A stretch of 64,000 nucleotides of DNA from contig CAVQYR010000001.1 of NCBI GenBank assembly GCA_963718235.1, forward strand, positions 960,001 through 1,024,000, given 5' to 3'. This DNA comes from an uncultured Actinomycetota bacterium. GTDB taxonomy: Bacteria; Actinomycetota; Actinomycetes; JAHEKZ01. A model generated the notes under the pieces. The model was not told the origin of the DNA, made no database searches, and saw only the letters and a list, made by a program, of their open reading frames with translations. This document shows positions 13,930 to 46,262 of this stretch, one piece after another. The translations under genes were made by a program, and so were the position numbers. Position 1 is the stretch's first letter, and every line of letters starts with the position of its first letter.

Positions 13930-13945
13930 GGGGCCCTTAGCCCCT
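13930..13945 (+). promoter_or_regulatory. DosR/OsdR-like box upstream of the V-ATPase operon
   Basis: GGGGCCCTTAGCCCCT; core GGGnC-N4-GnCCC intact; candidate -10 GACTGT at 13968-13973. Confidence 0.55.
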
Positions 13946-14006
13946 CGCCCTGAGGCCCCTCAGCGGCGACTGTGGAGGTGAGGCTCACCCATGACAGGGG
14001 CTCACC

Positions 14007-14453
14007 ATGCCGAGCGTTCGTGACTTTCTCGAGCGGCTGCGTCCCAGCGGTACACCTGGCGCCGCGGCCCTCTCGGGAGTTCCCGCCGATCGGGTGGCCG
14101 AGCGCTCGGCCGAGCTGGAGCCGGTCCTCGCCCGGCTGGCCGACGTCCAGGTCGAGGCGTCGGAGATCAGGCGGGCGGCTGACGTTGAGGCAAGGCGCAG
14201 ACGCGACGATGCCGCGACTCGCGCGCGTGCCCTTGTCGCCGAGGCGCACCGGATGGTCGAGGCCGAGCGGCGTGACTCTGCGGCCAGGGCTCATGCGAGG
14301 GCAGCGCACGAGACCCATGACCGCCTGGGCGAGGCTGCTTCGCAATCGGTGGCCATCGCCGACCTGGCGCGCGCCCGTGAACCGGCGTTGGTCGACCGGG
14401 TCGTGGATCGGGCCAGGGCGGACGTGGCCGATCTTCTCGGTGGCGGGCCATGA
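14007..14453 (+). CDS. V/A-type ATPase peripheral-stalk subunit G/H-like
   Basis: Ala/Arg/Glu coiled-coil; first gene of the operon; ATGA overlap with the next gene. Confidence 0.6.
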   Translation: MPSVRDFLERLRPSGTPGAAALSGVPADRVAERSAELEPVLARLADVQVEASEIRRAADVEARRRRDDAATRARALVAEAHRMVEAERRDSAARAHARAAHETHDRLGEAASQSVAIADLARAREPALVDRVVDRARADVADLLGGGP

Positions 14454-15385
14454 CCGCGGCGTGGGTCGCAGGGGCGGTCCGGGCTACCGCCATGTCGCAG
14501 CGACGCCTCGGAGCCGCGTCCGCGCGGCGCCTGGCTGCCCGGTCCAGCCTTCCCGAAGCGGTGGAGGTGCTCGCGCTCAGCCCGTACGGGCAGTACGTGC
14601 GCGCGGGTCAGACCCTCGCCGAGGCACAGCGCGCCGTCTCGGCAACCCTGCTGTGGCATCTGCGCGTACTCGGGGGCTGGGTTCCTCGCGGCGATGCCCG
14701 GATCCTGCGCGTCCTGGCGGGTGGCTTCGAGATCGCCAACACCGACGAGCGGCTGCGCGAGCTGGGCTCAGCGGACGCCGAGCCTGCGTTCCAGCTGGGC
14801 AGCCTGGCCACTGCCTGGGGTCGGATCTCGTCGGCCACGTCCGTCGCCCAGGTGCGTGAAGCCTTGGCCCGGTCGGTCTGGGGGGACCCGGGAGCCGACA
14901 CCGACGCAGCCATCCATCTCGGCCTGCGTCTGTCGTGGGCCGCACGGGTCGCCTCGGTCGTGCCATCGGCCCGACCGTGGGCGGGCGGCGCCGCTGCACT
15001 CCTGTTGGCCCGCGAGGTGGTGCTCGGGGGGCAGCATCCGACGTCCCCCACGGTCCGGGTGGTTGCACCCCTGCTCGGCACGGCCTGGGTCGCCGAAGGC
15101 ACGGTTCGGGGGCTCGCCAAGGCCCTGCCCGTCGACGCGCGGTGGGCTCTCGATGAGGTGGGCGAGCCGAGCGACCTGTGGCTGGCGGAGGCCGCGTGGT
15201 GGGCGCGAGTGGAGCGCGACGGCTTCTCCTTGCTGCGTCGTCCGGTCACCACGTCTGCGCCGGTGATCGGCTCGGTGGCCGTCCTTGCGGCAGATGCCTG
15301 GCGGGTCCGGGCTGCACTGGAGGTCGCCTCGCGCGGTGGCGCGGCGACGGCCGGGGTTCTGGAGGTGTTCGATGCCGTGGCGTGA
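14450..15385 (+). CDS. V/A-type ATPase subunit C (d)-like
   Basis: position and size; L..SPYG, FEIAN motifs resemble subunit C; divergent. Confidence 0.6.
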   Translation: MTAAWVAGAVRATAMSQRRLGAASARRLAARSSLPEAVEVLALSPYGQYVRAGQTLAEAQRAVSATLLWHLRVLGGWVPRGDARILRVLAGGFEIANTDERLRELGSADAEPAFQLGSLATAWGRISSATSVAQVREALARSVWGDPGADTDAAIHLGLRLSWAARVASVVPSARPWAGGAAALLLAREVVLGGQHPTSPTVRVVAPLLGTAWVAEGTVRGLAKALPVDARWALDEVGEPSDLWLAEAAWWARVERDGFSLLRRPVTTSAPVIGSVAVLAADAWRVRAALEVASRGGAATAGVLEVFDAVA

Positions 15386-43407: not shown

Positions 43408-44234
43408 CGACGATGCAGACCCGGTACCCGGCGGTCGCTGGGACCTTCTACCCCGCCGACCCGGTGGCCCTGGCCGACCAGGTCGACGCCTGCCTGCGCG
43501 ACGGTGCAGCGCGGCTGCAGCACCTGCCCACGATCGACCCGCAGCGGGTTCGGGCGCTGGTGGTCCCGCACGCCGGCTACGTCTACTCCGGGCCGGTGGC
43601 CGGCACCGGGTACGCCCTGCTGCCGCGCCTTCGTGACCGGATCAGGGGGGTGCTGCTGCTCGGCCCGGCCCACTACGTGCCCGTGCGTGGCTGCGCGGCC
43701 TCGGGGGCCGATGCCTTCGCCACCCCGCTCGGGGTCATGCCGGTCGACGTCGGGGCCAGGGACACCCTGCTCGCCGCTCCTTGTGCCTACCTCGACGACG
43801 CCGCCCATGCCCCGGAGCACAGCCTCGAGGTGCACCTGCCGTTCCTGCAGCGAACGCTCGGCGACGTCCCCATCGTGCCGATGGTGATCGGGGTCAGCGA
43901 TCCACACCGAGAGGCCTCGCTGATCGAGCCGTTCCTGGCTGATCCCGCGTGGCTCGTGATCGTGAGCAGCGACCTGTCGCACTACCTGCCGTACGACACG
44001 GCCCGAGCACGGGATGCACGCACGGCGTCGGCGATCACCGAGTGCCGCTGGCGCGACCTCGGTGACCACGACGCGTGCGGCTGTCGTCCACTCCGGGGCC
44101 TGCTGCAGGCCTGCGAGCAGCGGCAGCTCGAAGTCCGCCAGCTCGACCTGCGCAACTCAGGCGACACCGCCGGTCCCCGGGACCGGGTGGTGGGGTACGG
44201 AACGTTCGTCGCTCTCGAGGGAGGCTCGTCATGA
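43404..44234 (+). CDS. amrB: AmmeMemoRadiSam protein B (MEMO1 family)
   Basis: PAVAGTFYP, VPHAGYVYSG, EHSLEVHLPFLQ, SSDLSHY, ACG, NSGD, VVGY. Confidence 0.94.
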   Translation: MTTMQTRYPAVAGTFYPADPVALADQVDACLRDGAARLQHLPTIDPQRVRALVVPHAGYVYSGPVAGTGYALLPRLRDRIRGVLLLGPAHYVPVRGCAASGADAFATPLGVMPVDVGARDTLLAAPCAYLDDAAHAPEHSLEVHLPFLQRTLGDVPIVPMVIGVSDPHREASLIEPFLADPAWLVIVSSDLSHYLPYDTARARDARTASAITECRWRDLGDHDACGCRPLRGLLQACEQRQLEVRQLDLRNSGDTAGPRDRVVGYGTFVALEGGSS

Positions 44235-44896
44235 CCGGTGCCACCGAGGAGTCCGACCGGCCGCGACGGGACGGGTCGGTGGGCCACGTCCCCCAGTTCT
44301 CACCCACGCAGCAGCGTGAGCTGCTCGCCCTGGCGACGAACGCGATCGAGCACACGTTGCGCACGGGTCGTCGGGTCGTTCCCGCGGACGCTGACCTCGA
44401 GCCGTGGCTCCGGGAGCCCGCGGCGACCTTCGTGACCTTGCGCCGCGGCTCTCGGCTGCTGGGCTGCATGGGCACGCTCGAGCCCTACCAGGGACTGGCT
44501 GCCGACGTCGTGGAGCACGCGCTCAACGCCGCGTTCGACGACCCGCGGATGCCGCCAGTCGACGACGAGGACTTCGAGCGGATGACGGTGGAGATATCGG
44601 TCCTCGGGCCGCTGAACCCCCTGCGGGTCAGCAGCCGGGCCGAGCTCGTGGCCGTGCTGCGGCCCCACGTCGACGGACTCCTGGTGCGCGCTGACGGCCA
44701 TCGGGCGACGTTCCTGCCCGCGGTCTGGGACAGCGTGGACTCCGCATCGGACTTCGTCGCGCTGCTGTGGCGCAAGGCCGGTCTGGCCGCGAACCGCTGG
44801 CCGTCGTCGACCCGGCTGTGGACCTACGGCGTGTGTGCCTTCGAGGCCCACACCGGGCGGGCAGCATCGTCGAGGGGCGCTAGCGTGACGGCGTGA
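44231..44896 (+). CDS. amrA: AmmeMemoRadiSam protein A (AMMECR1 family)
   Basis: ATFVTL..GSRLLGCMG, AAFDDPR, VEISVL, ATFLPAVW, KAG. Confidence 0.92.
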   Translation: MTGATEESDRPRRDGSVGHVPQFSPTQQRELLALATNAIEHTLRTGRRVVPADADLEPWLREPAATFVTLRRGSRLLGCMGTLEPYQGLAADVVEHALNAAFDDPRMPPVDDEDFERMTVEISVLGPLNPLRVSSRAELVAVLRPHVDGLLVRADGHRATFLPAVWDSVDSASDFVALLWRKAGLAANRWPSSTRLWTYGVCAFEAHTGRAASSRGASVTA

Positions 44897-46262
44897 CCCC
44901 CGGAGTCGTCCGACCCTTCTCCGACCTCCCGGGGCCCCAGGGTCCGGACATGCTCAGGGCCTTCAGGCTCATGCGCCGTGACCCTCTCGCCTTTCTCGCG
45001 CAGTGCAGCGCCAGGTACGGGCCGATGGTGACGTTCCCGATCCCACGGGCCTCGGTCGTGTTCGTCGACGATGCGAGTGCCGTCCGCCAGGTCCTGCAGA
45101 CCAACCACCGCAACTACGGCAAGCGGACCATCCAGTACGACGCGCTGTCACTGGTGACCGGTGAGGGGCTGCTGACCTCGGACGGGGACGCGTGGCGGGC
45201 GATGCGCCGACTCCTGCAGCCGGCGTTCCACCACGACACCCTCGGGGCCGTGGTCTCCGGGGTCGAGGACGCTGCCGAGGCGATCGCGACCGAGTGGCGC
45301 TCCACCGGCGGGCAGGAGGTGTTCGACCTCGACGAGGCCATGATGCGGACCACCCTGCGCGTGGTCGGGGCCACCCTGTTCGGGGCCGACCTCGGCGAGG
45401 TGTCGGCCCGCCTGGTGGCCGCCGTGGTCAGCGCGCTGGACGTCGTGGTCGCGCGCGCCCAGCTACCGGTGAGCCCACCCGACTGGGTTCCCACCCGCGG
45501 CAACGTCCGGCTGCGGCGCAGCCTGCAGGCCCTCGACGAGGCGGTCGACCAGCTGGTGGCCCGACGACGGCGACGCCCGCTCGGCCACGACGTCCTGGGC
45601 CTGCTGCTCCAGGCCCAGGACGCCGGCGACATCACCGCCCGGCAGGTCCGCAACGAGGTCGTCACGCTGATCGTGGCCGGGCACGAGACGGTCGCCGCGA
45701 CCATGACCTGGACCTGGCTGCTGCTGGACCAGCACCCCGAGGTCCTGGCGAAGCTGCGGCGGGAGGCCGACGCCGTCCTCGGGGCCGATCGAGCGAGCCC
45801 GGTCCATCTGGCGACCGTCGACGCGCTGCGTCTCACCCGCGCGGTCGTCGACGAGTCGCTGCGCTGTATCCACCCGCGTGGGTGATCAGCCGTCGAGCCC
45901 TCGGCCCCGACGTCCTCGGCGGATATGGGATCCCGACCGGTGCGATCGTGATCATGAGTCCCTACCTGGTCCACCGTGACGCTGCCCTGTGGGATCGGCC
46001 GGAGGACTTCGACCCGGCCCGGTTCCTCGACGTGCGCCGCGACGACGTCGCGCGCGGCAGCTACCTCCCGTTCGGGGCCGGGCCGCGGCTGTGCATCGGC
46101 CGGGACCTCGCGCTCCTCGAGGCGACCTTGCTCACCGCCGTGCTCGTCCGCGACTTCGAGGTCCACCCGGTCGACGCCGACCACGTGCGCGCCCACGCCG
46201 GCGTCACGATCCGCCCCGTGGGCGGGCTGCCCAGCCGGGTCGTCGCCCGGGTGTGTCTCTGA
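44893..46262 (+). pseudogene. cytochrome P450 with one frameshift near 45864 (possibly a sequencing error)
   Basis: frame 1: GEGLLTSDG..W...RR..QPAF, AGHET, ESLR; frame 2: LYPPAW, FDPARF, PFGAGPRLCIG. Confidence 0.85.

Follow-up and report, generated by a model that had tools for sequence, protein, structure and literature searches.

The 64,000-nt stretch analysed here (the window; G000:C1:960001-1024000) comes from an actinobacterial genome of 3.17 Mb and 70% G+C on two contigs, designated G000. It carries a V/A-type ATPase operon that closes with a universal stress protein (USP) gene and an operon headed by amrS. Each operon is preceded by a 16-bp palindrome, box 1 and box 3, respectively, of the kind read by the response regulators DosR (DevR) of Mycobacterium tuberculosis and OsdR of Streptomyces coelicolor. 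A weaker pair, boxes 2a and 2b, lies between them. The comparisons below suggest that a second rotary ATPase and the amrS system belong to a DosR/OsdR low-oxygen programme. Genes were placed with Pfam and NCBIfam profiles, and boxes 1, 2 and 3 are each sited between divergent genes. The features at the first operon are as follows.

12917-13864, minus strand: alpha/beta-hydrolase gene, divergent neighbour across box 1
13930..13945: box 1, 16-mer GGGGCCCTTAGCCCCT, predicted DosR/OsdR-type operator with a perfect core; position weight matrix (PWM) score 12.0
13968..13973, plus strand: predicted -10 hexamer GACTGT (nAnnnT), at +23..+28 after box 1
14007..22173, plus strand: V/A-type ATPase operon, ten genes (Pfam), listed next
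14007-14453, plus strand: gene 1, 148 aa, without a family; N-terminus conserved in relatives
14450-15385, plus strand: gene 2, C/d-like subunit, weak match (23 bits against a cut-off of 29)
15285 to 16772, plus strand (listed open reading frame, overlapping gene 2): I subunit, above the Pfam cut-off
16769-17206, plus strand: c subunit, 145 aa, above the Pfam cut-off
17208-17432, plus strand: F subunit, above the Pfam cut-off
17429-17956, plus strand: E-like subunit, weak match (12 bits)
17827 to 19713, plus strand (listed open reading frame, overlapping the E-like gene): A subunit, above the Pfam cut-off
19710-21110, plus strand: B subunit, above the Pfam cut-off
21107-21745, plus strand: D subunit, above the Pfam cut-off
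21742-22173, plus strand: USP, last gene (66.9 bits)

The operon thus encodes the catalytic A and B, stalk D and F, and membrane I and c subunits of a V/A-type rotary ATPase. The c subunit has a single recognised c-hairpin (residues 82-141) and a hydrophobic N-terminal extension without an acidic residue. By the general features of rotary ATPases, such a c subunit would suit ATP-driven pumping more than ATP synthesis, and this enzyme may be a pump. Box 1 has the GGGNC-N4-GNCCC core intact, agrees with the OsdR consensus at 11 of 16 positions and is embedded in a longer inverted repeat, GAGGGGC-N5-GCCCCTC. Service to the divergent hydrolase gene was rejected, no -10-like hexamer being present at the mirror spacing. 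The second operon is arranged as follows.

41543-42193, minus strand: tag, divergent neighbour across box 3
42241..42256: box 3, GGGGCCGATCGGCCCT, predicted DosR/OsdR-type operator; PWM 15.35, rank 6 of 272
42279..42284, plus strand: predicted -10 region TGGACT; ACTGG is conserved in amrS promoters
42310-43407, plus strand: amrS (TIGR04337, 633.5 bits against a cut-off of 220)
to 44234, plus strand: Memo/amrB (Pfam Memo, 169.4 bits)
to 44896, plus strand: AMMECR1/amrA (Pfam AMMECR1, 129.2 bits)
44893-46262, plus strand: cytochrome P450 (Pfam p450); frame broken near 45865-45885

By its profile score the gene at 42310-43407 is certainly AmrS, and this radical-SAM protein gene is adjoined by Memo-like and AMMECR1-like genes, the composition of an AmmeMemoRadiSam system. 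The P450 is split over two frames, with the Pfam profile matched up to position 337 in one and from 334 in the other; either the sequence contains an error or the gene is a pseudogene. The frame is intact, at 452-496 aa, in its counterparts from relatives, and the P450 of G003 likewise adjoins the amr genes. Box 3 matches the published OsdR consensus AGGGCCGATCGGCCCT at 15 of 16 positions. It is the genome's best match to that consensus and the sole site in 3.17 Mb with at most one mismatch to the 16-mer; the two- and three-mismatch classes hold 3 and 44 sites, approximately what base composition predicts by a hand estimate. The tag gene was rejected as a target of box 3, again because a -10-like hexamer was absent at the mirror spacing.

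Conservation was assessed in two genome sets, one of 41 genomes (G000 and 40 relatives) and one of 401 from the class; the PWM was built from seven sites, all of them in relatives and none in G000. A score of at least 9 was the threshold for conservation, and sites of G000 were ranked among its 272 hits scoring at least 10. V/A-ATPase gene 2 was found in 6 of the 41 and 35 of the 401 genomes, the latter tally counting the unpublished G042; 32 promoters were compared, with G042, G240 and G326 outside this number. A PWM hit lay at -750..-400 from gene 2 in 21/32 promoters, and in 17/28 when only non-training genomes were counted. The core was perfect in the same interval in 16/32, and G334 has its core at -773. 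Hit density was 22 in the 11,346 nt of the focal interval versus 1 in 20,004 nt of flanks. Typical forms of the box are GGGACCTTAGTCCC and GGGACCTAAGTCCC.

The amrS gene was found in 6 of the 41 and 23 of the 401 genomes; the second figure includes the unpublished G054 and G060, both dropped from all later amrS counts. A perfect core lay within 300 nt upstream in 7 of 21 promoters (G000, G001, G003, G005, G030, G198, G238). Among the 20 relatives, 9 had a PWM hit at -130..-50 (5/16 in non-training genomes), and the other 4,660 upstream positions gave none. Near-boxes occur at -69 to -94 in G189, G146 and G220, and the right half-site alone is kept in G107, G170 and G071. No box precedes amrS in G032, G379, G280, G345, G357, G181 or G367, and G250 has a poor match at best. 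A search for related loci seeded with AmrS returned Proteobacteria and other distant matches at 64-72% identity, unusable for footprinting. The genomes compared span many families and the flanks of the conserved boxes have diverged. Conservation in orthologous promoters, which the preliminary description had proposed as a check, is what raises boxes 1 and 3, as predicted operators, above chance; box 2 was lost in G001. The amrS and V/A-ATPase genes occur together in 9/401 genomes against about 2 expected from 23 and 35, with kin and three unpublished genomes counted in.

The position of the boxes relative to the promoter was examined in 32 promoters with a box, 22 of the V-ATPase and 10 of amrS, aligned with the box as anchor. 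A T stands exactly 28 nt after the box in 20/32, and no other of the 60 post-box positions exceeds 11/32. This conserved T would place a predicted -10 hexamer at +23..+28, where many V-ATPase promoters read GAnnnT and amrS promoters read nnnACT followed by GG, and hence the box centre near -42.5, the position that had been predicted from three promoters with hexamers picked by eye. In G001, G003, G189, G238, G146 and G220, the predicted amrS -10 region lies at the same position as in G000; in G005 it is 1 nt further downstream. Within G000, nAnnnT occurs at the exact spacing in 7 of the 20 best PWM sites versus a background of 2% per position. At the M. tuberculosis hspX scaffold, the DosR box is centred at about -43.5 with a suboptimal -35, according to a 2026 cryo-electron microscopy study (PMC13486717).

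One group of V-ATPase promoters, from a single family (G146, G220, G250, G030, G076, G266), was distinct: after the box comes another stretch that is conserved, GGCCGTC..CGCCCTGCC. In this group, the -10 is likely to lie approximately 30 nt further downstream than in other V-ATPase promoters.

The genome encodes a DosR/OsdR orthologue, as the preliminary description had required, and it lies outside the window, as had been stated. It is a 216-aa response regulator (C1:199170-199820), whose gene and that of its kinase partner are located about 760 kb away. Against M. tuberculosis DevR (PDB 3c3w), it gave E 1.9e-82 and 278.9 bits, and the next family, VraR, gave 1e-42. The protein was one of 13 GerE-domain hits, among which a VraR-like paralogue had no such DevR match. 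Its recognition helix, AEKTVKNYVS, is identical to that of DevR, including K179, K182 and N183; K182 is described as the core DNA-binding lysine in the abstract of PMC5999986. A kinase gene (C1:200543-202159) with the architecture GAF-GAF-HisKA_3-HATPase_c lies two genes from devR and is convergent to it on the other strand. The GAF-A domain of the kinase is closest to DosT 2vzw (7.6e-48) and DevS 2y8h (1.7e-47), and its product is a predicted DevS/DosT-type haem-GAF kinase. The cydABDC genes adjoin this locus. DevR orthologues (E at most 1e-40) were found in 37/41 genomes, counting the unpublished G033, and because they are so widespread, co-occurrence of box and regulator is uninformative. 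In 7 of 29 genomes (G018, G024, G026, G029, G035, G036, G040), mostly of other families, devR itself has a PWM hit of at least 9 in the 300 nt ahead of it, resembling the situation in Streptomyces and mycobacteria.

Genome-wide, 10 of the 20 top PWM hits fall in non-coding DNA, which makes up 21% of the genome, and two of the highest-scoring boxes lie near the 5' ends of plausible target genes. Box AGGGCCGTTGGTCCCG (C1:1072810-1072825, PWM 17.2) is situated about 80 nt upstream of a tandem USP gene (C1:1071850-1072731), 48 kb past the window. Box CGGGACGAAGGTCCCA (C1:208189-208204, PWM 16.2) marks the start of the cytochrome bd oxidase subunit gene cydA (C1:206699-208291, minus strand); this box is 6 kb from the devS-like kinase gene and has GAGGCT at the canonical spacing towards cydA. 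USPs, which had been named as hallmark targets, are represented by the tandem USP and by the USP that closes the V-ATPase operon. The pair of boxes at C1:67830 and C1:67950 separates pit (PHO4) from a pstS-like gene, and another at C1:61663 precedes the polyphosphate kinase gene; these may be noise of the PWM or may point to phosphate metabolism. A further PWM site, C1:1852839, is without a clear downstream gene.

The remaining promoter of the preliminary description fared differently. Its region contains the following features.

34795..35877, minus strand: 360-aa membrane protein with a weak C-terminal region resembling deazaflavin (F420)-dependent oxidoreductases
35912..35927: box 2a, the flagged box, AGGGCCGCAGGGCCTC, weak candidate for the minus-strand gene; PWM 4.8, one half-site being AGG
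35938..35953: box 2b, previously unflagged, TGGGACCAAGGGCCTA, candidate for the plus-strand TauD-like gene; PWM 9.0, 26 nt from box 2a
35988..37091, plus strand: TauD/GBBH-like Fe(II)/2-oxoglutarate dioxygenase gene (TauD 143.9 bits, GBBH-like_N 39.9 bits)

Box 2a agrees with the OsdR consensus at 11 of 16 positions, but its core is broken. The hexamer GACAGT (35884-35889, minus strand) stands at the canonical spacing from it, ahead of the GTG at 35877. A consensus-like -10, TAGCAT (35976-35981), follows box 2b at a distance of 22 nt and would give the TauD-like gene a leaderless mRNA beginning with its ATG at 35988. The arrangement of box 2b, TAGCAT and this ATG mirrors that of box 2a, GACAGT and the GTG at 35877, which is suggestive, in one genome. 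Orthologues of the 360-aa protein are present in G001, G034 and G010. The same-genus G001 keeps both genes and TAGCAT, without box 2a or 2b; a one-mismatch box is found in G034 and none in G010. Where G000 has the two boxes, the intergenic region of G001 (L109) contains a four-fold tandem repeat of GTGGGAACTA. With a PWM score of 4.8, a core mismatch and loss in G001, box 2a is doubtful as a DosR/OsdR site. Boxes 2a and 2b might each be a weaker site particular to the lineage and together serve a divergent pair of leaderless transcripts, a possibility with the balance against it. The F420-oxidoreductase fusion assigned to this locus retains a C-terminal likeness that is below threshold (F420H2_quin_red 21.1 bits against a cut-off of 22, TIGR00026 32.3 against 46.35). 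Of the three-promoter dormancy regulon, boxes 1 and 3, conserved at fixed positions, are supported, and box 2, poor and not conserved, is not.

What was found in silico is the pair of regulator and kinase, the sites with their conservation, and the fixed spacing to a -10-like hexamer. Taken together, they make it probable, though well short of certain, that boxes 1 and 3 are operators through which the DevR/DosR/OsdR orthologue, partnered by the haem-GAF kinase, switches on the V/A-ATPase-USP and amrS operons; this orthologue is also the most economical candidate for the regulator of both boxes. From these observations we infer binding by the DevR orthologue, activation rather than repression, and a hypoxic signal. 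In the proposed mechanism, low oxygen (or nitric oxide or carbon monoxide) would lead the kinase to phosphorylate the regulator, whose dimer would then occupy the 16-bp palindrome, with its centre some 42.5 nt ahead of the start site. The box would overlap a poor -35, and the regulator would recruit RNA polymerase to the weak GAnnnT or nnnACT -10, as at hspX. The genes switched on would be the ten-gene V/A-ATPase operon ending in the USP and the amrS-Memo-AMMECR1(-P450) operon.

Several results weigh against operator function and low-oxygen control. Box 1 ranks 72 of 272 and is a middling site. The PWM score remained below 9 at -750..-400 in 11/32 V-ATPase promoters (G100, G071, G195, G107, G278, G021, G255, G210, G298, G284, G334), and 11 of the 20 amrS relatives likewise had no box scoring at least 9 before amrS. 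No box precedes devR in G000, so that the hallmark autoregulation is missing, and most of its family also lack a devR box. Top sites also precede unrelated genes, namely those for an M28 peptidase and an amidohydrolase, pstS/pit, ppk and the citrate synthase gene, so the PWM is not clean. A P450 needs O2 and is odd in a low-oxygen operon. The binomial figures of ~1e-15 and 9e-7 take kin as independent and thus overstate significance, and the division into coding and non-coding DNA relied on crude gene calls based on G+C content at third codon positions. Sequencing runs containing this DNA were metagenome contigs only, none of the RNA runs with raw reads contains it, and two metatranscriptomes carry 0.05-0.07 of its words. 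The flagged pattern itself belongs with these points. The three boxes do lie where they had been described, at 13931-13944 (GGGCCCTTAGCCCC), 35913-35926 (GGGCCGCAGGGCCT) and 42242-42255 (GGGCCGATCGGCCC), and the hexamers GACTGT (13968), GACAGT (minus strand, 35889) and TGGACT (42279) have their first base 30.5 nt from the box centre in all three cases. The pattern did not score above background, however: GGGNCNNNNGNCCY has 24 matches in the window versus 22.29 ± 5.88 in shuffled sequence, and a count of 24 is attained in 40 of 100 shuffles. Genome-wide there are 269 copies of the strict core GGGNC-N4-GNCCC, at 100/Mb in non-coding versus 75/Mb in coding DNA, and half-site spacings other than N4 occur at 65-102/Mb in non-coding DNA. 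With the loose and strict forms both at chance and N4 barely different from the rest of N0-N10, three promoter matches in 64 kb are what chance would give; pattern enrichment was dropped as evidence, and the case must rest on other grounds. One further match, at 41005-41018, was rejected as an operator because it is the stem of a perfect terminator hairpin after cspA. This cold-shock protein gene and its terminator occupy 40776-41024 of the window, and the box pattern within the hairpin is a false positive.

These frequencies, the little excess in non-coding DNA, the terminator match and the weak box 2a lost in G001 are what would be expected if the boxes were chance G+C-rich palindromes of a 70% G+C genome, without a regulatory role. 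Chance does not explain why boxes 1 and 3 are positionally conserved across families with diverged flanks, why the T at +28 is kept, or why box 3 is the genome's best match to an experimentally supported consensus, and we consider it very improbable. Less probable still is a role of the palindromes as hairpins in RNA or DNA, serving as terminators or attenuators, rather than as protein sites. The longer inverted repeat around box 1 and the true terminator at 41005 would suit such a role, but the boxes lie between divergent genes and upstream of the predicted -10, and would therefore not be transcribed. Furthermore, conservation falls on G2-4, C6 and the mirror positions rather than on stem complementarity, the variable positions 5 and 12 often being non-complementary (for example, GGGACCTTCGACCC and GGGACTTTGGCCCC).

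If the boxes are real operators, they could be read by another NarL/LuxR-family regulator, such as the paralogue at C1:903258-903902, instead of the DevR orthologue. The genome has at least five further candidate response regulators of the NarL type, including one that shares 39% identity with DevR and is kept in nearly all relatives, and devR in G000 is unboxed. Nevertheless, the DevR orthologue keeps the DosR helix unchanged where the paralogue reads ENTVKNH, the same box type precedes devR in the 7/29 genomes noted above, and the boxes fit the consensus bound by OsdR in electrophoretic mobility shift assays (EMSA), as given in PMC5069765; we regard a different regulator as unlikely. Comparable doubt attaches to the DevR orthologue binding as a repressor or answering a signal other than oxygen, such as development or redox, as proposed for OsdR. 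OsdR affects developmental and stress genes (PMC5069765), a box over the -35 can occlude polymerase, and the P450 and TauD-like enzymes need O2. This alternative is opposed by the weak -10 hexamers and the lack of an evident -35, which are typical of activator-dependent promoters, by a geometry equal to that of the activated hspX promoter (PMC13486717), and by the DosT/DevS-like GAF-A domain that the kinase retains. Low-oxygen activation by the DevR orthologue is the reading that we carry forward.

The DosR/OsdR switch and its operator are already known, and USPs, nitroreductases and nitrate reductase are established targets. For two of the three promoters at issue, those of the V/A-ATPase and amrS operons, the promoter comparisons support predicted new membership of this regulon. 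Within the literature searched, which was screened by abstract and had supplements and Gerasimova et al. 2011 outside its scope, no paper was found that connects DosR/DevR/OsdR to a V-type ATPase of bacteria or to AMMECR1/AmmeMemoRadiSam. We tentatively propose, at slightly less than even confidence, a broader generalisation: in non-mycobacterial Actinomycetes, the V/A-ATPase with its USP may be a conserved module directly activated by DosR/OsdR, perhaps an ATP-driven proton pump that energises the membrane when respiration stops, with AmmeMemoRadiSam in the same low-oxygen programme. If true, a rotary ATPase dedicated to low oxygen would be present in many actinobacteria, with a bearing on how non-growing cells maintain their membrane potential. 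It would also provide a concrete inducing condition for the widespread radical-SAM/Memo/AMMECR1 system of unknown function and the first physiological condition under which the AmmeMemoRadiSam system could be assayed. Memo and AMMECR1 have human homologues.

Among known systems, OsdR/OsdK (SCO0204/SCO0203) of S. coelicolor, as presented in PMC5069765, likewise pairs a NarL-type regulator with a DevS-like kinase. Its EMSA shifts are abolished by mutating the conserved G's of the 16-bp palindrome AGGGCCGATCGGCCCT, which box 3 matches at all but one position. The OsdR targets include USPs and a Zn-dehydrogenase, and here both gene types are found in or beside the V-ATPase operon. In contrast, Table 1 of that paper contains no V-type ATPase or radical-SAM/Memo/AMMECR1 genes, and OsdR targets cluster round a boxed osdR, whereas the regulator here is distant and unboxed.

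The DevR(DosR)-DevS/DosT system of M. tuberculosis shares the identical recognition helix and the kinase GAF-A domain, and a boxed tandem USP occurs elsewhere in our genome. M. tuberculosis is not known to possess a V/A-ATPase or an AmmeMemoRadiSam system. The M. tuberculosis box is usually of the GGGAC type and position 5 varies here; a second, cooperative box, as in M. tuberculosis, was not seen at boxes 1 and 3. The DosR box near -43 over a poor -35 (PMC13486717) is close to the -42.5 predicted here. With the V/A-ATPases of Thermus thermophilus and Enterococcus hirae, the present operon shares subunits A, B, D, F, I and c in recognisable form. It differs from them in its predicted DosR-type operator and the USP gene within the operon, in a divergent 148-aa first gene without a family, and in a 145-aa c subunit with one c-hairpin.

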